A stretch of 36,007 nucleotides of DNA, taken from UHGV virus genome UHGV-0135626; one strand, 5' to 3'. The notes below the pieces were generated by a model. That model did not search any database, was not told the origin of the DNA, and was given only the letters and a program-made list of their open reading frames with translations. Source of the stretch: a virus. The position numbers and the translations under genes were made by a program. Below, one piece after another: positions 2,658-34,008 of the stretch (position 1 is its first letter; each line of letters opens with the position of its first letter).

Positions 2658-2680
2658 TATAATAAGTAAGTGATTACTTA
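2658..2680 (+). promoter_or_regulatory. Candidate promoter/operator: consensus -10 hexamer abutting a palindrome
   Basis: Perfect TATAAT at 2658-2663, then TAAGTAA-gtga-TTACTTA (7-bp arms, 2663-2680) ending at the first codon of the ParB-like operon. The -35 element is weak. Confidence 0.35.
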
Positions 2681-3379
2681 GTGTATTGTAGCAATAAAAT
2701 GGATGTAAAAATCACGATTTTGCAGGTTGATGTTGCCAACCTTCGCCCGAATACCTGGAACACCAATTCGGTTGGTGCGCAGAATTTTGAAAAACTGAAA
2801 GGTTCTATCGAAAAATTGGGCTTTTTTAAGCCAATTTTGGCTCGTGAACTTGAAGATGGATTTTTTGAAATCCTCGGCGGCGAACATCGCTGGCGTGCCG
2901 CTATTGAGCAAGGAATTTCAACGGTTCCAGTGCTTTCTGTGGGCAAAATTAGCGATGTCGTAGCTAAACAGATGTCACTGGTGGACAACGAGCGATACGG
3001 TGAAGACGACCAAATCGCATTGCAACGCTTCATTGAAGAAATTCAGTCAGAACTTGACTATCAACTGTCTGAAATCGCCCCGTATGACGACGAAATCTCG
3101 ATGGTTTTAGCAAAAGAGGCGGCAATCGACCTTGAAGCACTGGAGGCGTTGTCTCGTGGTAGTGATGAGCCTGTCGATACCGACAAACGAGAGAAAACCG
3201 AACGTGTGGGTGCGGAACATCAGACCATGCGCTTCAAAGTAACTTTCGATGCGTCAGATCGTGTTGCAGAAACCATAAAAAACATCATCAAAGAGCAGGC
3301 TATTAACACCGGTAATGAAATGGAGAACGCTGGTGAGGCTCTGGTGTGGCTGGTCGACTACTACAAGGAGCGTATGTAA
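2681..3379 (+). CDS. ParB/Srx-like nuclease-domain protein, copy 1
   Basis: ORF begins with GTG at 2681 (alternative ATG at 2699); neither has a strong SD. ParB N-terminal box FEILGGEHRWRAAIEQG; acidic C-terminal half. Stop overlaps the next start (TAATG at 3377-3381). Confidence 0.75.
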   Translation: MYCSNKMDVKITILQVDVANLRPNTWNTNSVGAQNFEKLKGSIEKLGFFKPILARELEDGFFEILGGEHRWRAAIEQGISTVPVLSVGKISDVVAKQMSLVDNERYGEDDQIALQRFIEEIQSELDYQLSEIAPYDDEISMVLAKEAAIDLEALEALSRGSDEPVDTDKREKTERVGAEHQTMRFKVTFDASDRVAETIKNIIKEQAINTGNEMENAGEALVWLVDYYKERM

Positions 3380-4047
3380 TGACCAAAAAGTTTGAAATCG
3401 TATATCGCGACCCGGCAGATCTTATTCCCTATGAGATGAATGCCAAAAAGCATGATGAACAGCAGATCAGAGATCTGGCCGCAGCCATTAAAAAGCGCGG
3501 ATTTGACCAGCCAATTACGGTCGATAAGAACGACGTAATTATTACTGGTCATGGCCGCCGTGAGGCTGCAATTTTTGCTGGACTTGAGCGCGTACCGGTT
3601 ATTGTTCGCGATGATCTCAGTGATGACGAGGTTCGTGCGAAGCGCCTTGAAGATAACCGACTTGCCAGCATTGATTACGATGCAATTAAGCTACAGAAAG
3701 AGCTTGAGTCGCTTGTTCTGGACGATATCGAGGTTTTCGGCTTTGAAGAGCGTGAGTTGAATGTTCTCGTTGGCAGTATGACAGAAGAAATGGACACCGA
3801 CTCGCTAGTTATCGATCTTGGCGAAGAAACTAAACGACAGAAGGATGAACACACCGAGATCAGTCGTGAAGTTGCAGCGGAAGAAGTACGTGTTGTCGAC
3901 GTATTGGGCTTTAAAACGCTTCCTGCTGGCTCTGCCATTGTTGTTGGTGATTTGCTTGCCCACATGGAAGAAATGACGGGAGAAAGCGGGGTAGACGCAT
4001 TTGTGGCATATGCGGAGAAGATCTCTTCCGGGGAGATGGCTGCATGA
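3379..4047 (+). CDS. ParB/Srx-like nuclease-domain protein, copy 2
   Basis: Start taken at ATG 3379 (MTKKFEIV), overlapping the upstream stop; the track ORF begins at 3346. ParB box IITGHGRREAAIFAG; acidic C-terminal region. Confidence 0.75.
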   Translation: MTKKFEIVYRDPADLIPYEMNAKKHDEQQIRDLAAAIKKRGFDQPITVDKNDVIITGHGRREAAIFAGLERVPVIVRDDLSDDEVRAKRLEDNRLASIDYDAIKLQKELESLVLDDIEVFGFEERELNVLVGSMTEEMDTDSLVIDLGEETKRQKDEHTEISREVAAEEVRVVDVLGFKTLPAGSAIVVGDLLAHMEEMTGESGVDAFVAYAEKISSGEMAA

Positions 4048-5605: not shown

Positions 5606-5872
5606 ATGACGTTAACCGATAAACAAAAGGACATCATCAAAACGCTCAATCTCGGTTATGAGCGAGGTCATCTACTTGACCTGGACGAATTGCTTGAAGT
5701 TTTGCCGTACAAGACAACCAAGCAAAGTATCCAGTTCTCAATTCGCGCTCTGATAAAAAAGGGGCTGGTGGAGAAAGGGCATACGCGCCAACGCAGTGAC
5801 AATCGCTATCACCGCCGAACTCTTGGGTTAACCACTTTAGGTCGAGCCAAAGCGAAGTTACTGGTGATGTAA
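5606..5872 (+). CDS. Small basic protein, putative winged-helix DNA-binding regulator
   Basis: 88 aa, SD AAGGA 5 nt upstream, 9 nt after the GNAT gene stop. Basic C-terminus (RQRSDNRYHRRTLG); the helix-turn-helix assignment is pattern-level only. Confidence 0.5.
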   Translation: MTLTDKQKDIIKTLNLGYERGHLLDLDELLEVLPYKTTKQSIQFSIRALIKKGLVEKGHTRQRSDNRYHRRTLGLTTLGRAKAKLLVM

Positions 5873-5896: not shown

Positions 5897-5951
5897 CCTG
5901 CTTCTGTATATATAAATAATAAGAAACTTATTAAATATATACGGAAGCAGG
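5897..5951. repeat. Long imperfect inverted repeat with an AT-rich interior
   Basis: CCTGCTTC (5897-5904) pairs with GAAGCAGG (5944-5951); the interior also pairs imperfectly (tgtatatat...atatatacg). Confidence 0.5.
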
Positions 5952-5990
5952 CTTAATAAGACATGCCCAGACCTAATTAAACACCCCAGA

Positions 5991-6068: not shown

Positions 6069-6701
6069 ATGACGGTCGAAAAAGACGAGGTAAAAACTCG
6101 CCTGACACCAGCGGAGTGGGCCGAAGCTGAAGCCAAATGGACGTCAGGCGAATATACACTCTCAAAGCTGGAGGAAGAGTACGGCATTCGTCGTGAAACA
6201 CTCTCCAGACATTTCAAAAAGCGAGGATTAGAGAAAGGCGCGGACTCTGTTGGGAAGATGGTTCGTGAGTCTCTTAAATCTGACGCAGAGCTTCGCGCTA
6301 AAGCCCGTGCGGAAAAGATAGAAGAACGTCGTACACGTTATGACGGCTGGGCGTATGCGTTGGGGCAGATGGTGATGGTCGAAGTCACTACGGCCAAACG
6401 TGAGGGTAAGCCTTTAGGGGCGATTGAGGATTCTCTCAAGAGCTTACAGAGAGCAAGTAATACCCTTGCAAAATGCTTTGAAGTTTCGTCCAAAGCATTG
6501 GGCATGGATCATGCGGAAAATGACGAGGAAGAAATTCCGAACCTGGTATTTGGTGAGCTTACGCCTTCCCAGGTGGCGAAATTACGTCAGGAAGACGACG
6601 AGCCTGAAATCATCGATGACGAATTGCTTGAGACGTTGGAAGAAGAAGCTCTAAGCGAATTTGATGCGACAGATGATGGAAGTGAAGGGGAGGACGAATA
6701 A
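6069..6701 (+). CDS. terS: Terminase small subunit
   Basis: 210 aa immediately upstream of terL with TAATG overlap. N-terminal HTH-like segment (YTLSKLEEEYGIRRETLSRHFKKRG) and a very acidic C-terminus. SD AGAGGGA. Confidence 0.65.
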   Translation: MTVEKDEVKTRLTPAEWAEAEAKWTSGEYTLSKLEEEYGIRRETLSRHFKKRGLEKGADSVGKMVRESLKSDAELRAKARAEKIEERRTRYDGWAYALGQMVMVEVTTAKREGKPLGAIEDSLKSLQRASNTLAKCFEVSSKALGMDHAENDEEEIPNLVFGELTPSQVAKLRQEDDEPEIIDDELLETLEEEALSEFDATDDGSEGEDE

Positions 6702-7957
6702 TGGCAATCCCGTCCTCGCTCAGTCTTGTGCAACTGCATTCTGGACAGATGAAAGTCTTCCAGTCTCCGCATCGATTTAAAGTTGTTTGTGCTGGTCGAC
6801 GCTGGGGAAAATCCCGGTTGTCGATCTCCACTATTATTCGTGCGGCGGCAAAGGAAAAAAAGCAAAGGGTCTGGTATGTCGCTCCTACTTACCAGATGGC
6901 TCGCCAGATTTTGTGGGACGATCTACAGGAAGTTCTGCCTCGTAAGTGGGTTAGGAAAAAGAACGACACCACGATGACAATCGTGTTGAAGAACGGTTCG
7001 GAGATCGCCCTCAAAGGTGCTGATAAGCCTGACACTCTGCGCGGCGTAGCGTTGCATTTTGTAGTGCTTGATGAATTTCAGGATATGAAGGCTGACACCT
7101 GGTACAAGGTGTTACGACCTACTCTTTCATCGACACGCGGCGGTGCACTGATCATTGGTACGCCAAAAGGCTTCTCGGAATTTCACAAACTGTGGACTAT
7201 AGGCCAGAACGTAGAGCTGCAAAGAAAGGGACAGTGGAAGAGCTGGCAGTTTGTAACTGCCGATTCTCCGTTTGTACCTACGGCGGAAATTGAAGCTGCT
7301 AAGAACGATATGGACCCGAAATCGTTCGCTCAGGAGTACCTGGCGAGCTTTGAGAACATGTCCGGGCGCGTTTACTACCCGTTCGATCGTAACGTGCATG
7401 TAAAACCGCTTCAGTTCAACCCTCGGTTGCCTATATGGGTAGGGCAGGACTTCAACATTGACCCGATGTCTTCAGTAATTTTGCAACCTCAGCCAAATGG
7501 TGAGCTATGGGCAATTGATGAATTGGTGCTCTTTTCCTCTAACACGGCAGAGGTTTGTGATGAGCTTGAGAGACGCTTCTGGCGCTGGAAATCACAGATA
7601 ACGGTATTTCCAGATCCGGCAGGTGCTTATCGCCAACATGCTCGCGGGGAGTCTGACGTCGACATATTCAAAGAGAAGGGATTCTTACGTGTCGATTATT
7701 CGAAAAAGCACCCGCCAATTGCGGATCGTGTTAATGCTGTTAACCGAATGCTGATGACCGCATCTGGAGATATCCGGCTGTATATCGATCCGAAGTGCAA
7801 GCATTTGATTGATTCACTGGAAAAAGTCATCTACAAGCCTGGAACACGAGATATGGATAAGACAGGTGGCATTGAGCATAGTGCAGACGCATTGGGCTAT
7901 CCAGTACATCGTAGGTATCCAGTCAAAAACCGTGTTATTCTTGGTGGTTCTCGATAG
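6701..7957 (+). CDS. terL: Terminase large subunit (ATPase and nuclease)
   Basis: 418 aa. Walker A-like VVCAGRRWGKS, Walker B HFVVLDEFQDM, acidic residues in the C-terminal half; sits directly upstream of the portal gene. Confidence 0.8.
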   Translation: MAIPSSLSLVQLHSGQMKVFQSPHRFKVVCAGRRWGKSRLSISTIIRAAAKEKKQRVWYVAPTYQMARQILWDDLQEVLPRKWVRKKNDTTMTIVLKNGSEIALKGADKPDTLRGVALHFVVLDEFQDMKADTWYKVLRPTLSSTRGGALIIGTPKGFSEFHKLWTIGQNVELQRKGQWKSWQFVTADSPFVPTAEIEAAKNDMDPKSFAQEYLASFENMSGRVYYPFDRNVHVKPLQFNPRLPIWVGQDFNIDPMSSVILQPQPNGELWAIDELVLFSSNTAEVCDELERRFWRWKSQITVFPDPAGAYRQHARGESDVDIFKEKGFLRVDYSKKHPPIADRVNAVNRMLMTASGDIRLYIDPKCKHLIDSLEKVIYKPGTRDMDKTGGIEHSADALGYPVHRRYPVKNRVILGGSR

Positions 7958-7983
7958 GTAAGTAATTATCTAAGGTTATTCAA

Positions 7984-9558
7984 ATGGAATTGAACGACAA
8001 ACAAATTAAGGATCTGGTGGCGCGACGCCACCCGGAATACGAAAAGAAAAAAGAACATTGGGACTTCCTCGCCAGCACTTACGCTGGCGGGCGTGGTTGG
8101 TTTACAGACAATATCTTTCGTTACTTTAAAGAGGGAGATCAGGAGTTTAAGGAGCGAGTTGAACGTGCTTATCGCTTCAACCACACTCGTGAGGTGGTAA
8201 ACCTCATCAACAAATATCTCTTTAAAGAAGACATTCATAGAAATATCGAAGAGGCACCAGAGCAGATCCGCAATTTCTGGAAACGTGCGACTCGCCAGAA
8301 TGCCTCTATTGACTCATTTATGGCCGCTATTGATTTGCAGTCGTCTATTTACGGTCGCATATGGGTTGTTGTCGATAGCACGATGAGTGGTGATGTTGAG
8401 TCAGTAGCTGACGAGAAAAAGAAAGATGCTCGCGCCTACGCCTACTGGATTTCACCTCAGCAAATGCTGGATGTGGCATGGGACGACGACGGGAATATGT
8501 TGTGGGCGTTAATTGTGGAAGTCGCTCGTGATGACGCAGATCCTTTTACTTCTACAGGTCAGGAATACCAACGTTATCGTCTGTGGACACAAAACGAGTG
8601 GTATCTGTTCCGTGAGGAAGTGAAGAAGGGCGCTGGTGGAGCAGGTCGCCGTCAGGCAAAAGTTATTTTAGAGGATAGCGGTGAGCATAATCTCGGCGTA
8701 GTTCCTGTGTTTCCTGTTGATTGTATTGGAGAAAGTGAATCACCGTATTTCAGCCCATCGTTGATCGATGATATCGCTTATCTTGATCGTGCGGTTGCAA
8801 ACTATCTGTCAAACCTTGATGCCATTATTCAGGATCAGACATTTAGCCAGTTGGCTATACCGGTACAGTCGCTTTTACCTGGTGATGAAAACCACACTAA
8901 AGTGCTTGAAATGGGCACAAAGCGAGTCTTCACCTACGATTCTGAAGGTGGAAACCAGCCGTTTTATCTGTCACCAGACCCGAAACAAGCTCAGATGATC
9001 ATCACTACGATTAAGACGGTGATTAACGAAATCTACCATTCAGTTGGTGTAGCTGGTGAGCGAACGAAGCAGGACAACGCACAGGGAATCGATAATTCAT
9101 CTGGTGCCGCAAAAATGTATGACTTCCAGCGTGTAAATAGCTTGCTTGTCACAAAAGCAGAGCGTCTGGAAAGGGCTGAACGCCAAATCATGCTACTGGT
9201 TGCGAAATGGATGGGGGTAGATCTGGACGAAGACCACTCTTTAATTGCGTATCCAGAAAGTTTCGATATTCGTGGCCTTACTGATGAATTTTCTGTTGCC
9301 GAGAAACTGTCATTACTTCAGGCACCGGACTCTGTACGTCGTCACCAGATGGAAATGCTTATTGAGAAGATTTTCCCGAACATTACTGAGGCGATGAAAA
9401 AGGAATTTGATAAAGATCTCTTGAATTTTCCTCCAAAAAATGATCTAAATACCCTTGAAAATAAGTCAGTACTTACTTATGATCGTGGTGCGGCCCAAGA
9501 AAGCGGGCAAGATCAACCCCGAGGGAATGGGGACTCATCTACTCAAGAGAACGAGTGA
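7984..9558 (+). CDS. Portal protein
   Basis: 524-aa ORF directly after terL, with an acidic and Gly-rich C-terminus; assigned by size and conserved gene order. Confidence 0.75.
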   Translation: MELNDKQIKDLVARRHPEYEKKKEHWDFLASTYAGGRGWFTDNIFRYFKEGDQEFKERVERAYRFNHTREVVNLINKYLFKEDIHRNIEEAPEQIRNFWKRATRQNASIDSFMAAIDLQSSIYGRIWVVVDSTMSGDVESVADEKKKDARAYAYWISPQQMLDVAWDDDGNMLWALIVEVARDDADPFTSTGQEYQRYRLWTQNEWYLFREEVKKGAGGAGRRQAKVILEDSGEHNLGVVPVFPVDCIGESESPYFSPSLIDDIAYLDRAVANYLSNLDAIIQDQTFSQLAIPVQSLLPGDENHTKVLEMGTKRVFTYDSEGGNQPFYLSPDPKQAQMIITTIKTVINEIYHSVGVAGERTKQDNAQGIDNSSGAAKMYDFQRVNSLLVTKAERLERAERQIMLLVAKWMGVDLDEDHSLIAYPESFDIRGLTDEFSVAEKLSLLQAPDSVRRHQMEMLIEKIFPNITEAMKKEFDKDLLNFPPKNDLNTLENKSVLTYDRGAAQESGQDQPRGNGDSSTQENE

Positions 9559-9579
9559 TAAGTAACAAAAGGAATTTTT

Positions 9580-10467
9580 ATGAATCTGTGGCAAATGCTT
9601 TTGGCCCGTCGTGGTCTGATGGATGTCGCTGAAGCGCATGAGCGTGGAGGCGCTGGCGGTGTAGCTGCTGATAATGAGCAGAGTACACAAGATCCTGACA
9701 AACAGGGTGAACAAAAAGAGCAGCCGAAGGGTGATGACGAATACGCTGGCATGACTCATGAAGAGTTACTGGCCGAACTTCGCAAAACCAAGAAAGCTGG
9801 TGCTGAACTGCTGAAAGAGAACATGAAGCGCAAAGAGAAAGAGCGCACATTGGCCGATCAGCTTGCTCAGTACGGTGAAATCGACCCGGCGCGTGCTCGC
9901 CAGCTTTTAGAAGCTGAACAGGCCGCAGAAAACGCACGTCGTGAGGCGGAGCAAGCTGAACTGGAGCGTCGTGGTGAGTTCGATGCTGTTAAAAAACAGA
10001 TGATCGAAGCACACCAGGCAGAGCTGGCACAGCGTGACGAACGTTATGCAGCACTGGAAAGTGAAAACGCATCACTGAAATCTCAATTAGTCGAGATGAC
10101 CGTGGGCGCTTCCTTCAGTAACTCTCTCTTCCTACGTGACAAAGTTCTGATGACTCCGGCAAAAGCCCGCGTGATCTACGGTTCTCATTTTGAAGTGGGT
10201 GAAGACGGTAGCGTAGTGGGTTATGACAAACCGGCAGGTCACAAAGAACGAGCTGTTCTGGTTGACGGTGAAGGTAAGCCGTTGCCGTTTGAATCCGCGA
10301 TTGAACGCATTGTGCGGGCAGATCCGGAAGCTGACGCATTGATGCGTAGCGAAGCCAAGCAGGGTGTAGGCTCACATTCCAAATCGACCTACACAATATC
10401 CCAACCGAAGAACAAGTCGACTATGGATAAGTTGGCCTCCGGTCTGGGGAAAATTGGACTTAAGTAA
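9580..10467 (+). CDS. Scaffolding protein (putative)
   Basis: 295 aa between portal and capsid genes; long charged Ala/Glu/Arg/Gln-rich helical stretch. SD AAAAGGAA 5 nt upstream. No protease motif seen. Confidence 0.55.
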   Translation: MNLWQMLLARRGLMDVAEAHERGGAGGVAADNEQSTQDPDKQGEQKEQPKGDDEYAGMTHEELLAELRKTKKAGAELLKENMKRKEKERTLADQLAQYGEIDPARARQLLEAEQAAENARREAEQAELERRGEFDAVKKQMIEAHQAELAQRDERYAALESENASLKSQLVEMTVGASFSNSLFLRDKVLMTPAKARVIYGSHFEVGEDGSVVGYDKPAGHKERAVLVDGEGKPLPFESAIERIVRADPEADALMRSEAKQGVGSHSKSTYTISQPKNKSTMDKLASGLGKIGLK

Positions 10468-10492
10468 CATCTAAATCAAAGGGAATTGATAG

Positions 10493-11368
10493 ATGCCATT
10501 ACTGCGTGAAGAAGCTGAAAAGCTGTCTAACAACGAACTTGAACAGGGTGTGATCGAAACTATCATCGATCGCGATGACCTGTTTGCCATCTTGCCTTTT
10601 ATGAAAATTAATTCAAAGGCATATCTGTACAACCGTGAAAAAACGCTGAGTGAAGCTACCTTCATCGACGTTAACGACACCATCCCTGAAGGTGCAGCAA
10701 CCTTCGAAGAATGCGTTGCGAAACTGCGTATTCTGGCTGGTGACGTAGACGTTGATAAATTCCTGGCGACCACTATGGCCGACACCAACAACCAGTTGGC
10801 TATTCAGGTTCGTCAGAAAGTTAAAGGTCTGGCTCGTGCGTTCCGTCGCAACCTGATTTTGGGTGACTCCAGCTCCAACAACAAAGCGTTTGACGGCATT
10901 CCACGCCTGATGCACGCAGATCAGAAGATCGATATCGCCGGTGCATCTATGACTTTCTCTATGTTCGACGAACTGGTCGATGCGGTGAAAGATCTTGGTG
11001 CTGACTGCATCATGATGCGTTCAGAGCACCTGCGTGCTTACCGTGCGCTGCTGCGTACAGTAAACGTAGGCCCGTCTGAAATCATGATGGAGAACTTCGG
11101 TCGTCCGATGCTGTGTCATAACGGCGTTCCGTTCATCATCAACGACTTCATCCCGACCGATTCTGGCAAAGCAAGCATCTACTGCCTGCATCTGTCAGAA
11201 GAGAACGGCGTTACAGGTCTGTATGGCGGCGACAACGCAGGTATCGTTGTTGAAAACATTGGTACTGTACAGAACAAAGACGCAGTACGTACCCGTGTGA
11301 AGTGGTACTGCTCTCTGGCGAATAAGCACGATAAGGCTATCGCTGCATTGACCAATGTAAAAATTTAA
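10493..11368 (+). CDS. Major capsid protein (putative)
   Basis: 291 aa after the scaffold gene, SD AAAGGGAA, followed by a strong intrinsic terminator. Assigned by position and size. Confidence 0.65.
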   Translation: MPLLREEAEKLSNNELEQGVIETIIDRDDLFAILPFMKINSKAYLYNREKTLSEATFIDVNDTIPEGAATFEECVAKLRILAGDVDVDKFLATTMADTNNQLAIQVRQKVKGLARAFRRNLILGDSSSNNKAFDGIPRLMHADQKIDIAGASMTFSMFDELVDAVKDLGADCIMMRSEHLRAYRALLRTVNVGPSEIMMENFGRPMLCHNGVPFIINDFIPTDSGKASIYCLHLSEENGVTGLYGGDNAGIVVENIGTVQNKDAVRTRVKWYCSLANKHDKAIAALTNVKI

Positions 11369-11400
11369 TCAGTGCAGTAGATAAGTAATTATCTATGTTA

Positions 11401-11430
11401 AAGGGTGGGCTATACGCCCACCCTTTTTGT
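11401..11430 (+). terminator. Rho-independent terminator after the capsid gene
   Basis: AAGGGTGGGC-tatac-GCCCACCCTT followed by TTTTGT: 10-bp GC-rich stem plus T-tract. Confidence 0.8.
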
Positions 11431-11441
11431 AGGAGCGAGAA

Positions 11442-12362
11442 ATGCCAGAACAAAAGATGAAGATTACGGAAGAGGCATTTTCGGATTTTACGGGGCATAT
11501 GTGCCGTGCCGGATTTACCAATTCTATCTCCGATGAACCTTTAACCGAGCGACAACAAAGTCAGCTATCTGCTTGTTTGCAGGCGGTTCCCTTCTCCCAA
11601 TCCGTAAACATAACCCCGGCTTCACCGTCAGTTTTGGTTGGGAAAACTGTTCAACTTAGTGCAGGTATTACTATGGGTAAGAGTGCCAGTTCATTCACCT
11701 GGAAGTCAGCCAATGATCAAATTGCAACCGTCAACGGCACTGGATTAGTAACTGGCGTAGCACCAGGCAAAGTGAAAATTACCGCAACTGATCAGGAAAC
11801 CCAGCTTTCCGCGTCAGTGGAAGTCACCGTAAATCCGGTAGCCGTTCAATCCGTAACGGTAACGCCAGACTCAACCTCTGTTGAGAAAGGGAAATCAGTC
11901 AGTCTGAAAGCGAATGTTCAGCCGTCAAATGCGACGAATAAGGCAGTTACCTGGTCTTCCAAAAATGAAGACAAGGCAACGGTAGACCAGAGCGGGAACG
12001 TTACTGGTGTAGAAGTTGGCACTGCGACGATTGAGATCGTTTCCCAAGATGGCAGCAAAAAGGCAACTGCAACGGTGGAAGTAACTGCGCCTGTTGTGGC
12101 TGTTACTGGTGTCGAAATCGACCCAAATAGCACAACCGTTGAGGCAAACAAAACTGTTCAGCTGACCGCAAATGTCGAGCCGGCAGGAGCAACAAATAAA
12201 ACCGTTACTTGGGAATCCAAAAATACCGAGTTTGCAACGGTGGACAGCGAAACCGGTGTTGTAACTGGTGTTGCGGCTGGCACTGCCACAATCGAGGTTA
12301 CTACCCAAGATGGTAGCCACAAAGCGACAGCGACTGTAGAAGTTACTGTCGCACAGGAATAA
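11442..12362 (+). CDS. Ig-like (Big_2-type) repeat protein, probable head decoration protein
   Basis: 306 aa with three tandem Ig-like units of about 80 aa, each with a KAVTWxSKN...ATVDxxGxVTGV...GTATIE pattern. SD AGGAG 6 nt upstream. Confidence 0.7.
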   Translation: MPEQKMKITEEAFSDFTGHMCRAGFTNSISDEPLTERQQSQLSACLQAVPFSQSVNITPASPSVLVGKTVQLSAGITMGKSASSFTWKSANDQIATVNGTGLVTGVAPGKVKITATDQETQLSASVEVTVNPVAVQSVTVTPDSTSVEKGKSVSLKANVQPSNATNKAVTWSSKNEDKATVDQSGNVTGVEVGTATIEIVSQDGSKKATATVEVTAPVVAVTGVEIDPNSTTVEANKTVQLTANVEPAGATNKTVTWESKNTEFATVDSETGVVTGVAAGTATIEVTTQDGSHKATATVEVTVAQE

Positions 12363-14563: not shown

Positions 14564-14947
14564 GTGTTTATTGAAGCGTTTGCAAGTTTGATGCAGAAGG
14601 CAAAGATTGGCACGGTCGGGACTGACATTTTCTGTCACTACTTGCCTGCCAATGTGAAATCTGGCGTCCTGCTTATTAACCCAAATACCGGCATCAGCAT
14701 CGATCATGAGCTACAGGGCTTTTATCACGAATCATTCACAATCATTGTGCGTGGTTCGTCAATTACTACGACGGTTGAGAAAGCCAATAAAATCATTGAG
14801 ATGTTTCCAGTAGAGGAAACGGAATCTGGTGGTGTTTATTTTCGACTTGTACGACCGATGGCGATGCCAATCATTTATCCCAAAAATGATGGGGCATTAA
14901 TAGAAGCAGGCATTCCTGTTGAATTTGCTGGCTATTTATTGAATTAA
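14564..14947 (+). CDS. Tail terminator or tail completion protein (putative)
   Basis: The track ORF (14441-14947) overlaps the upstream gene in another frame. A GTG at 14564 with SD GAGAGG 5 nt upstream, just after the upstream stop (14560-14562), gives about 127 aa. Start uncertain (alternative ATG 14591). Confidence 0.45.
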   Translation: MFIEAFASLMQKAKIGTVGTDIFCHYLPANVKSGVLLINPNTGISIDHELQGFYHESFTIIVRGSSITTTVEKANKIIEMFPVEETESGGVYFRLVRPMAMPIIYPKNDGALIEAGIPVEFAGYLLN

Positions 14948-14956
14948 CTCAATTGG

Positions 14957-14970
14957 TAAGTATATACTTA
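14957..14970. promoter_or_regulatory. Perfect 14-bp palindrome TAAGTATATACTTA upstream of the major tail gene
   Basis: Exact self-complementary 14-mer in the 74-bp gap before the major tail protein start; same TAAGTA half-site as the other intergenic palindromes. Confidence 0.4.
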
Positions 14971-21436: not shown

Positions 21437-21518
21437 GCATCTGGATAAGTAAGTACTAATTTACTATCATTGTGGCGCTGACAGGATGTTAGCGCCTACT
21501 TATTTCAAGGATGAAACA

Positions 21519-27766: not shown

Positions 27767-27859
27767 TTGTGGAAAAAAATAATCATTTCTGTAAAAATAG
27801 GTAGGTACTAACTTAATGGTGGGCATGGAACGCCCACCATATCTAGGAGCAAAGGATAA

Positions 27860-30486: not shown

Positions 30487-31527
30487 ATGGTTACAAAAAC
30501 AGTAATTCCTGATGACATCAAAACGCTAAAATCGGATGTTAGTAAATTAAAAACCGATCAAGGAAACTACGCAACAAAATCTTATGTAGACAATAAAACA
30601 ACATGGAATGGTTATTGCAATTTAATCTATGATCAAAAAACATTGCCAACAACTGGAACTATATTCAGCGGTAAGCTGCATTTGTCAAATAAGACTGGTG
30701 AAACGGAAAACGCTTATAGTGACATATATACCAGAAAAAATATTGATGGTACTAAAGATACAATGACGAGGATCGTCACACATAACGGGACAAAAGGTAT
30801 CTTTTGGGACTTTAGTGATCTTAACGGAGGAACTTTAATTTTTCCAGGCAGTGGTGGTTATCTTAAGATGGGGAACTGCCTCATGTCGTATGGTGTGCGG
30901 GGAAGTAACGCGCTTATTAAGTTTGATTACACCGACACATTACAGATCAAATATGCCAATCATGGGTCAACCATGACATTAAACACACAGGGAACCGCTT
31001 ATGCTGGTGTTACTGCTCAATTGTGGGGCAACTCCAGTCGTCCAGTTGTTTATGAAATTAGGGATGATGGCGGGCTTTTTTTGTTTTATGCACAAAGGAA
31101 CCCAGATAAAACCTATCAGCTTGAGATAAACGGGCCATGCAAGGCTACATCATTCGACCAGGTGTCGGACAGAGATCTTAAAGAAAACATTCAGGTTATT
31201 GATAATGCCACTGAGCGCATCAGATTAATGAATGGGTATACTTACCGTCTCAAGTCTAATGGTATGCCTTATGCTGGCGTTATTGCGCAAGAGGCACTTA
31301 ATGCAATCCCTGAATCAGTTGGTAGCACAATAAAGTACAAGAGCGGGGACAATGGGTCTGATGGAGAAGAGGGAGAAAGATACTATACCGTCGATTACTC
31401 AGGCGTAACGGGTTTGCTTGTTCAGGTAGCCAGAGAGTCAGACGACAGGATAACAGCACTGGAAGAAGAAAACGCAGAATTAAGACAAAGATTATCTGCA
31501 ATTGAGGCGGCGCTTGCGTCTAAATAA
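30487..31527 (+). CDS. Tail fibre protein with C-terminal intramolecular chaperone (peptidase S74-type) domain
   Basis: 346 aa, SD GGAG 7 nt upstream. Residues 227-234 SDRDLKEN match the autoproteolysis site of endosialidase/T5-type fibre chaperone domains; a terminal helical segment (EEENAELRQRLSAIEAALASK) follows. Confidence 0.75.
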   Translation: MVTKTVIPDDIKTLKSDVSKLKTDQGNYATKSYVDNKTTWNGYCNLIYDQKTLPTTGTIFSGKLHLSNKTGETENAYSDIYTRKNIDGTKDTMTRIVTHNGTKGIFWDFSDLNGGTLIFPGSGGYLKMGNCLMSYGVRGSNALIKFDYTDTLQIKYANHGSTMTLNTQGTAYAGVTAQLWGNSSRPVVYEIRDDGGLFLFYAQRNPDKTYQLEINGPCKATSFDQVSDRDLKENIQVIDNATERIRLMNGYTYRLKSNGMPYAGVIAQEALNAIPESVGSTIKYKSGDNGSDGEEGERYYTVDYSGVTGLLVQVARESDDRITALEEENAELRQRLSAIEAALASK

Positions 31528-31946: not shown

Positions 31947-31976
31947 TTTACAGATAGGTAAGTGCATACCTATATA
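31947..31976 (+). promoter_or_regulatory. Candidate sigma70-type promoter with an embedded operator palindrome
   Basis: -35-like TTTACA (31947-31952), 18-bp spacer, -10-like TATATA (31971-31976). The spacer holds the perfect inverted repeat ATAGGTA-agtgca-TACCTAT (31954-31973). Confidence 0.45.
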
Positions 31977-33318: not shown

Positions 33319-33454
33319 ACCACAAACAGCCAGCGTGTTGTTCTGCGATGGGGCTGAGCCTATCTATATCAGCAATAATGATGTAATGACTGAAGAAACC
33401 GAACGCCAAATCCTTTTTCACAATACGATGGGAGAGAGGGTTTGTGGTTGGTGA
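33239..33454 (+). CDS. Rz1: Outer-membrane lipoprotein spanin (Rz1-like), overlapping Rz in another frame
   Basis: 71-aa ORF starting inside the Rz gene and running past its stop. Lipoprotein signal with lipobox ISGC (MRRAVKYVRKMLLPFIVSCMISG|C); short mature peptide. Confidence 0.6.
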   Translation: MRRAVKYVRKMLLPFIVSCMISGCVIKPQTASVLFCDGAEPIYISNNDVMTEETERQILFHNTMGERVCGW

Positions 33455-33461
33455 TGTCGAA

Positions 33462-33483
33462 GTTCCCCTCAAATGAGGGGAAC
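33462..33483. terminator. Stem-loop between convergent genes; candidate bidirectional terminator
   Basis: GTTCCCCTC-aaat-GAGGGGAAC, a 9-bp stem between the Rz1 stop (33454) and the minus-strand toxin stop (33487). Confidence 0.55.
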
Positions 33484-33486
33484 ACA

Positions 33487-34008
33487 TTATTCTTCGAACA
33501 ATTTTTCGATAGATTTTGTAGGATAGAACAAAGAACGCTCGTTGTTACCAACCAGCTGGATAAAGCCTAAACTTTTATAAAACGCCTTGGCTTTGTCATT
33601 TAACGCCTCAACGAAAAGTCCATGAATGCCTACAGCAAGAGATGCATTGTACACAACGCGCATTGCATGTGTTACAAGCATTGAGCCAAATCCTTGACCT
33701 TGAAGGGACTTGTCCAAAGCCAGCCTACCCAAAGTAACACTTGGAACATTCCGATAAGGAACCTTCTTTTGTTTGCTTCTTGAAGGTAAGGACTCCTTTT
33801 CAAAACAACTACCTGACAAAGTGTAATATCCTAACACTTTTGGCCTTTCTTCTTGAGTGCAAAGCACATAAGCACGAAGAATTTTTCCCTCATGCTGCCT
33901 TTTTAAGTGGTTGGCTAAAAAGGCGTTTAGTGACTCTTCGCCGCAATCAAAACCGTTTAGATCATAATCTTTCTCTCCAGAGAAAATCTCTATCGTTGTA
34001 TTGCTCAC
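33487..34008 (-). CDS. GNAT-family acetyltransferase toxin of a type II toxin-antitoxin pair (TacT/AtaT/KacT-like)
   Basis: 173 aa; GNAT motifs (QGQGFGSMLVTHAM acyl-CoA loop, AKAFYKSLGF). Immediately downstream of, and co-oriented with, a DUF1778-type antitoxin gene. Confidence 0.8.
   Translation of the reverse strand: MSNTTIEIFSGEKDYDLNGFDCGEESLNAFLANHLKRQHEGKILRAYVLCTQEERPKVLGYYTLSGSCFEKESLPSRSKQKKVPYRNVPSVTLGRLALDKSLQGQGFGSMLVTHAMRVVYNASLAVGIHGLFVEALNDKAKAFYKSLGFIQLVGNNERSLFYPTKSIEKLFEE

Follow-up and report, generated by a model that had tools for sequence, protein, structure and literature searches.

Dispersed 18-bp near-palindromes of an SSU5-like phage-plasmid are predicted operators of a phage-encoded regulator

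Introduction

Proteins of the MarR family bind as dimers to dyad sites of 16–20 bp that overlap the −35 and −10 elements of promoters. The KorB–OB sites of plasmid RK2 are short dispersed palindromes that are read by one protein and serve global silencing and partition. T4-type phages carry intercistronic hairpins with C(UUCG)G stability as well as PeSL cassettes, in which a stem-loop is followed by an early promoter. In phage P1, the C1 repressor binds 22 operators dispersed over the genome and silences lytic functions (PMC8546580), and N15 has four dispersed IR centromere sites that are bound by SopB (PMC7205306). Some phage-plasmids carry antibiotic-resistance genes (PMC9600943). Phage-plasmids of the SSU5-like type are common in Escherichia coli, Salmonella and Klebsiella, including clinical Enterobacteriaceae, and a literature search found no paper on the motif described below or on the regulation or lytic silencing of SSU5-like elements.

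The window analysed here, a stretch of 36,007 nt of the virus genome UHGV-0135626, is part of an SSU5-like phage-plasmid. It carries members of a family of 18-bp sites whose common form is TARGTA-N6-TACYTA and which are dispersed about 20 times per genome, mostly in intergenic DNA. By analogy, the P1 C1 system appears to be the closest functional analogue: both elements are phage-plasmids of about 100 kb, the copy number is similar (about 18–25 here), and many copies here overlap promoters. However, the P1 operators are asymmetric 17-mers (ATTGCTCTAATAAATTT), whereas the present site is an 18-bp dyad of unrelated sequence with a candidate reader, and copies are found inside the structural-gene cluster and beside terminators, an arrangement not known for P1. 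The copies inside the portal gene, upstream of the major tail gene and in a divergent region fit the dyad-over-promoter anatomy of MarR operators, although the candidate reader is an 88-aa protein without the canonical N- and C-terminal dimerisation helices and the approximately 20 sites per genome are far above the typical MarR regulon locus. With KorB/OB and N15 SopB/IR the family shares short palindromes dispersed over a plasmid or prophage-plasmid, but the readers there are full ParB proteins with a helix-turn-helix, whereas the ParB_N proteins encoded here have no detected DNA-binding domain and the site is unrelated. ParB-bound palindromes would therefore be the weaker analogy. Like the T4-type hairpins and PeSL, the family consists of repeated short sequences that can form stem-loops at gene boundaries and are sometimes coupled to promoters; unlike them, it has weak hairpins, conserved arms and a fixed spacing, and pairing is not selected. 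The element appears not to have been described before, yet it is of a conventional kind, a putative dispersed dyad operator family of a phage-plasmid.

Results

A shared 14-mer lies within an 18-bp near-palindrome at two gene junctions

A sequence-only reading of the window had reported that one 14-mer, TAAGTAATTATCTA, occurs at two structural-gene junctions, between terL and the portal gene and between the capsid gene and its terminator. Exact matches on the plus strand were found at 7959–7972 and 11382–11395, well above the shuffle expectation: with up to two mismatches, three occurrences were observed against 0.18 expected, a number reached by 0 of 100 shuffles. The gene context, which was taken from the open reading frames and from the annotated genome of Escherichia phage Cyrano (99.4% identity), agreed with that reading. 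The flanks, which it had called AG-rich, are not notably so, the likeness outside the 14-mer being the palindrome arm TAGR on the 5′ side. Each focal copy is longer than the 14-mer and fits an 18-bp near-palindrome, TAGRTAAGTAATTATCTA, at 7955–7972 and 11378–11395.

Focal copy 1 (7955–7972; TAGGTA AGTAAT TATCTA, 11/12 positions of TARGTA-N6-TACYTA) lies between the terL open reading frame (6701–7957) and the portal open reading frame (7984–9558). The TAG stop of terL is the first triplet of the copy, and its TAG, TAA and TAA are stops in frames 0, +1 and +2. The portal ATG (7984) is found 11 nt past its end, so that a transcription start at this copy would leave no room for a Shine–Dalgarno sequence. 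Focal copy 2 (11378–11395; TAGATA AGTAAT TATCTA, 10/12 with two mismatches) lies 10 nt past the major capsid open reading frame (10493–11368) and 4–6 nt ahead of a strong Rho-independent terminator on the plus strand (11400–11427; AAAGGGTGGGC tatac GCCCACCCTTT and a T run), for which the 60-nt fold has an energy of −27.1 kcal/mol and a z-score of −5.65. A weak −10-like hexamer, TATGTT (11394–11399), overlaps the 3′ end of this copy. A promoter scan of the window listed none at 7955 or 11378, and the best promoters read by eye, TTCTCG-17-TAAGGT at focal copy 1 and AGTGCA-17-TATGTT at focal copy 2, reached only 6–7/12. Because there is no convincing promoter at either, the roles considered for the focal copies (roadblock, auxiliary operator or weak restart promoter) are drawn by analogy from other members of the family.

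The site is dispersed over the genome

In the window, six matches to TARGTANNNNNNTACYTA with at most one mismatch were found, starting at 2663, 7955, 9462, 14953, 27798 and 31955, against 0.10 expected, and the number was reached by 0 of 100 shuffles. The complete Cyrano genome holds nine perfect and nine one-off matches (0.00 and 0.28 expected from Markov shuffles), the perfect copies all being intergenic or overlapping a stop codon only. Sites scoring at least 11/12 number 19 in SSU5 and 16 in a Klebsiella relative; they are mostly orthologous in position to those of Cyrano, with the outer hexamers kept and the central 6 bp variable. TAAGTA is the most intergenic-enriched hexamer of the Cyrano genome (31 intergenic vs 13 coding occurrences, about 15-fold), and ATAAGTAA occurs there 13 times in intergenic and once in coding DNA. 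A scan of IMG/VR for the site returned 44 stretches, many of them on SSU5-like contigs already in our collection of relatives. The element is not specific to structural-gene junctions: about 20 copies are spread over early and late regions. Inspection of Cyrano revealed no copy beside repA, parA, the toxin–antitoxin modules, the integrase/repressor pair or the S24-peptidase gene, an absence that would fit a lytic regulon.

Across 53 sites from Cyrano, SSU5 and the Klebsiella phage, information content was confined to positions −4 to +21, with the consensus (a/t)(a/t)RA TARGTA AGTACT TACYTA TyAT and the core (A)TARGTA-AGTACT-TACYTA(T). The half-site spacing is fixed at N6 in the window and in all three genomes; a variable spacing (N2 vs N6) was considered and rejected, because the arms have a 4-nt periodicity that mimics it and the orthologues fit N6. 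On the coding strand, conservation is slightly higher in the left half-site than in the right, a directionality not expected of a pure DNA palindrome.

Two further copies in the window lie near gene ends or starts. The member at 27798–27815 (TAGGTA GGTACT AACTTA, 11/12) is found 32 nt past the stop of the tail-protein J gene, with a GC-rich hairpin without a U tract directly on its 3′ side (27816–27840), and a perfect member at 31955–31972 (TAGGTA AGTGCA TACCTA) lies about 50 nt upstream of a holin-like gene (32024).

Many copies overlap sigma70-like promoters

Of the 53 sites, 20 overlap a gene-strand promoter of the sigma70-like kind that scores at least 9/12, compared to 3/53 on the opposite strand and 1.6% of random positions; the strand asymmetry could be partly compositional. 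The −35 element starts at several different offsets relative to the site, as is commoner among repressor operators than among activator sites. In the window, the copies at 2663, 9462, 14953 and 21446 overlap promoter elements.

The perfect member at 2663–2680 (TAAGTA AGTGAT TACTTA) lies in the divergent region between a UvsW-like operon (minus strand) and a ParB_N/ABC/winged-helix operon (plus strand). It is flanked by TATAAT (2658–2663, plus strand) and by TTTACA-18-TACACT (2709–2680, minus strand), which places it at both putative starts of the two operons. The start of the first ParB_N gene is GTG 2681, directly 3′ of the site, in the mechanical list of open reading frames and ATG 2699 in the Cyrano annotation.

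Within the last 100 nt of the portal coding sequence, a near-consensus sigma70-like promoter TTGAAA-17-TATGAT (9455–9483, plus strand) has its 17-bp spacer filled by a family site (9462–9479; TAAGTC AGTACT TACTTA). This promoter would drive the scaffold and capsid genes. The 29-nt block 9455–9483 is nearly invariant in 56 distinct relatives while the adjoining codons vary, and its −10 element switches between TATGAT and TATCAT among relatives. As this switch changes Asp to His, the nucleotide constraint on the block exceeds the protein constraint. Read by eye, the TAAGTC of this copy, in place of TAAGTA, keeps an in-frame TAA out of the portal gene.

Upstream of the major tail gene, a family site at 14953–14970 (TTGGTA AGTATA TACTTA) overlaps the −10 element of a promoter-like TTGAAT-18-TATACT (14939–14968, plus strand), and its orthologues in SSU5 and Klebsiella match at 12/12. 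A promoter-like TGGATA-17-TATCAT (21442–21470, plus strand) encloses a degenerate member at 21446–21463 (TAAGTA AGTACT AATTTA), the Klebsiella orthologue of which scores 11/12. On the 3′ side of that site there is a GC-rich 10-bp hairpin (21474–21496; GGCGCTGAC agg ATGTTAGCGCC), whose loop and 3′ arm contain the Shine–Dalgarno sequence and start codon (ATG 21486) of minor tail gene L; the hairpin was listed by the terminator scan although it overlaps this start codon.

A layout in which the site has a −10-like hexamer starting at its 3′ end and a terminator or GC-rich hairpin 1–7 nt later is shared by focal copy 2, the capsid copies of Massilia and Paraburkholderia relatives, a RuvC/RNR copy in Cyrano and copy 21446. 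With the hairpin so close to the −10-like hexamer, the transcription start would fall inside its stem. Judged from their arrangement, these copies may be repressible restart promoters, roadblocks or auxiliary operators.

The late promoter proposed by the sequence-only reading holds only loosely: many members of the family overlap sigma70-like promoters as embedded dyads, but the two focal copies themselves reach only 6–7/12. A T4-late-promoter-like ATAAGTA, a MotA box, a Fur box and an IHF site were also considered and set aside, as their sequences or spacings do not fit.

Positions are conserved while the sequence changes in concert between lineages

The relatives were sampled as 88 loci around portal homologues, which gave 53 distinct sequences of the terL/portal junction and 27 of the post-capsid junction. 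The site was present in nearly all of them, with a variable centre at terL/portal, and the comparison of homologous junctions in dozens of relatives thus bears out the suggestion of a conserved junction element. More distant lineages have palindromes of their own at these positions: TAGGTGGTT/AACTACCTA in the L075 group (portal identity about 80%), TAGGTATTT/AAATACCTA in Morganella (69%), AAGTCACC/GGTGACTT in Massilia (55%) and ATAGTCAaaacTGACTAT, that is ATAGTCA and TGACTRT around aaac, in Paraburkholderia (53%). In the L075 group and Morganella, the portal-internal promoter spacer also holds the palindrome of the respective lineage, which costs the protein three amino-acid changes. The Massilia and Paraburkholderia relatives have four copies of their palindrome within 11.5 kb: ahead of terS, between terL and the portal gene, and on either side of the capsid gene, the downstream one lying directly ahead of the terminator. 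These palindromes abut or fill near-consensus TTGACA-17-TAnnnT promoters. That all sites of a genome share the altered sequence while remaining at the same places points to a sequence-specific trans-acting reader.

Recognition as DNA is favoured over an RNA element

As an alternative, the copies may act in RNA, as a short hairpin rich in A and U, which at the focal copies has 7 bp and a GUAA loop, and which stabilises mRNA 3′ ends, marks processing sites or is the target of a phage RNA-binding protein or endoribonuclease punctuating polycistronic transcripts. We regard this explanation as unlikely, although it survives better than the others considered below. Most copies lie 0–40 nt past a stop codon, several are just upstream of a terminator or hairpin, and the left arm is the better conserved one on the coding strand; operators are not usually placed just ahead of a terminator or GC-rich hairpin, a place more in keeping with an RNA element. 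The two focal copies form the predicted fold (z-scores of −2.2 and −3.0), and the flanks sometimes extend the pairing, as in a 28-bp perfect palindrome in Klebsiella and an A–T to G–C double change in L055. However, the hairpins of family members have energies of only −1.5 to −6.8 kcal/mol, and two members barely fold: the values are −4.4 and −6.6 kcal/mol for the focal copies and −2.7 and −1.5 kcal/mol for the copies at 9462 and 27798. The possibility that the focal palindromes are themselves intrinsic terminators was likewise rejected, as the stems are AU-rich and weak and lack a T run, and the true terminator at 11400–11427 is separate.

Covariation gave no support to pairing. Among 50 distinct sites, the R/Y pair of the half-sites is Watson–Crick in 28, G.T in 10 and A.C in 10, so that A.C is as frequent as the G.U pair expected of an RNA helix, and over all arm pairs 63 G.T compare with 47 A.C. 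Fisher tests of the R/Y association in each of the three genomes gave p = 0.64, 0.025 and 0.31, the nominal 0.025 being that of SSU5. In 35 distinct terL/portal orthologues, 93.1% of the helix cells are paired compared to 91.7% after shuffling; double changes account for five cells only, and one helix pair is lost to A.C in 10 sequences, with compensation in a single one. The apparently compensated centres at this junction are lineage-wide changes present in all copies of a genome. An RNA hairpin under compensatory evolution was therefore rejected, there being no covariation beyond column composition over the 50 sites and 35 junction orthologues.

An Rfam search of the whole window gave 0 matches; with this result and with covariation equal to that of shuffles, a structured RNA family or processing site was also discarded, and the processing site offered by the sequence-only reading, given the weak hairpins as well, did not hold. 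Furthermore, the same arms are found at all copies with a fixed spacing even where the centre cannot pair, and a transcript would hold no more than part of any copy that lies in a promoter spacer or spans a transcription start. Independent half-sites, the lack of covariation, the weak hairpins, the absence of an Rfam family and the portal-internal copy together favour recognition of the site as double-stranded DNA rather than RNA. From these sequence features we consider it probable that the 18-bp sites act as protein-binding DNA operators.

A small predicted winged-helix protein is a candidate reader

The operon headed by the 2663–2680 site encodes five products, namely two ParB_N proteins, two ABC-type ATPases and an 88-aa protein. 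The gene for the 88-aa protein (5606–5872, plus strand) is the last of the operon, and its product is a predicted MarR-like winged helix-turn-helix protein. It has no Pfam match and belongs to phrog_900, listed as unknown function in PHROGs. Its AlphaFold model (pLDDT 82) is a winged helix that matches MepR, MarR, ZitR and AdcR with query TM scores of about 0.7–0.77. The protein is conserved in every lineage examined, with 44–45% identity in Massilia and Paraburkholderia, where its gene lies upstream of and near the operator–promoter before terS. An argument from co-evolution of this reader with its site was abandoned, as the putative recognition helix is almost invariant across lineages that differ in the inner half-site; this invariance would fit binding of the shared outer ATARGT element. 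We infer that the 88-aa protein is a candidate for the reader of the sites.

The same operon raises a second explanation, in which the sites are ParB-family loading or centromere-like sites of the KorB/OB or SopB/IR type, at which the ParB_N proteins (2699–4047) would load and silence or organise the plasmid-prophage. Two ParB_N genes belong to the operon headed by a perfect site, and one of their products carries a GGEHRWRA motif, which we take to resemble the ParB CTP-binding box. The dispersed palindromes of 16–18 bp resemble parS and OB, and N15 likewise has four IR sites (PMC7205306). However, both ParB_N proteins are only about 225 aa long, and Pfam and PHROGs detected no helix-turn-helix or other DNA-binding domain past the ParB_N domain. 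In addition, Cyrano has a separate ParA operon with its own large palindrome elsewhere. Loading by the ParB_N proteins is accordingly judged improbable.

Stop codons and gene boundaries

The sequence-only reading had allowed that the repeat might be merely tandem-stop context at highly expressed genes. In a stronger form, TAG-G-TAA-G-TAA would stop all three frames, on both strands as a palindrome, and so end frame-shifted or read-through translation, or the resemblance would be due to chance. Focal copy 1 has its three stops in three frames, TAAGTA outnumbers TACTTA on the coding strand (31 vs 17 occurrences in intergenic DNA), and a TAAGTAA does lie directly 3′ of the portal TGA (9559–9565, plus strand), as had been noted. 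This last string is an orphan that matches the left half-site only: TGATAAGTAA is followed by no right half 6 nt downstream, and it is conserved in SSU5 and Klebsiella. The second TAAGTAA of that reading, at the scaffold stop, does overlap the stop, but at 10461–10467 rather than 10463–10469, and it is not conserved, the SSU5 and Klebsiella relatives reading CAAGTAA. Against punctuation, copies lie up to 160 nt from any stop, one copy is in a divergent promoter region without an upstream gene end, the right half-site TACYTA is also conserved (the left only slightly better on the coding strand), and a stop-free variant is found inside the portal gene. A three-frame stop cluster was therefore rejected as the conserved property, being true at 7955 and false for the portal-internal copy and for the palindromes of Massilia and Paraburkholderia. 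These data make translational punctuation or chance very improbable and suggest that tandem-stop context is a by-product of TAG and TAA triplets in several frames of the consensus. With such triplets in its consensus, an operator is confined to non-coding DNA or has to be recoded within a gene; the stop codons in the motif are hence a consequence and not a purpose, which accounts for the apparent marking of gene ends.

The gene after the capsid terminator (11442–12362 in the window) codes for a Big_2 Ig-domain protein of 306 aa in the window and in SSU5, but the Klebsiella phage has a gene for a 142-aa protein there (6973–7401 of its locus, L005). As this gene differs between lineages, a mosaic boundary coincides with the operator and terminator. 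That the sites are recombination linkers, short repeated homologies at gene boundaries promoting module exchange between related phage-plasmids as has been proposed for the PeSL cassettes of T4-type phages, is the least probable explanation. The post-capsid site and terminator do mark such a boundary (Ig-domain gene in E. coli and Salmonella types, a different gene in Klebsiella types) and the phage encodes its own T4-like recombination genes, but 18 bp is short for homologous exchange and the dyad symmetry, fixed spacing, promoter overlap and coding-embedded copy would be left unexplained.

Discussion

The sites are most likely dispersed operators of a phage-encoded dimeric regulator, as predicted from their symmetry, positions and concerted change; protein binding and a repressive effect are both inferred. 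Such a regulator would bind the sites and repress transcription of the lytic cycle. The bound protein would occlude RNA polymerase wherever a site falls on the −35 element, the −10 element or the spacer of a sigma70-type promoter, as may be the case at the portal-internal promoter, at the tail promoter and in the divergent region between UvsW and ParB. Copies that lack a clear promoter, including both focal copies, could be roadblocks to read-through, auxiliary (looping) operators or operators of weak restart promoters beside terminators. In an operator/−10/terminator cassette, upstream transcription would stop and a repressible restart promoter would fire from within the terminator stem.

A broader proposal is that most of the lytic programme of the approximately 100-kb SSU5-like element forms one regulon, governed by the 88-aa MarR-like protein through about 20 operators of 18 bp, including the portal-embedded copy and the operator/−10/terminator cassettes. 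We regard this as conceivable but doubtful. A single, easily recognised operator motif would provide a map of likely regulated transcription units and a short list of candidate regulators in SSU5-like phage-plasmids.

Several other repeats were observed in the window and in Cyrano. A palindrome of about 57 bp (window 5897–5953; CCTGCTTCTGTATATATAAATAATAAG aaa CTTATTAAATATATACGGAAGCAGG) lies between the gene of the 88-aa protein and terS, and the GenBank records of Cyrano and SSU5 both begin close to the middle of it. Its arms recur in a second copy downstream of the ParA operon (Cyrano approximately 31160–31210, SSU5 approximately 33450–33500). The 5897–5953 palindrome could be a cos/pac site or a centromere. 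Beside the integrase gene of Cyrano there is an inverted repeat with 15-bp arms (40959–40991), which may be a lox-like resolution site; it differs from the family palindrome, and a lox-like or integrase site was accordingly rejected as an identity for the latter. Six repeats of the CTACAGTGGATA type, located in Cyrano at 60360–60620, outside the window, downstream of the end of the repA gene (minus strand), may be replication iterons. A LexA-box-like palindrome (ATACTGTAT gtgt ATACAGTAT; Cyrano 89274–89295) lies 16 nt upstream of the gene for an S24 LexA-like peptidase and may link the element to the SOS response. Finally, AACACATG is strongly enriched at gene starts in Cyrano (10 intergenic occurrences and one coding, for example at 57498 and 33600), which suggests a preferred ACAC spacer between the Shine–Dalgarno sequence and the ATG in this phage.
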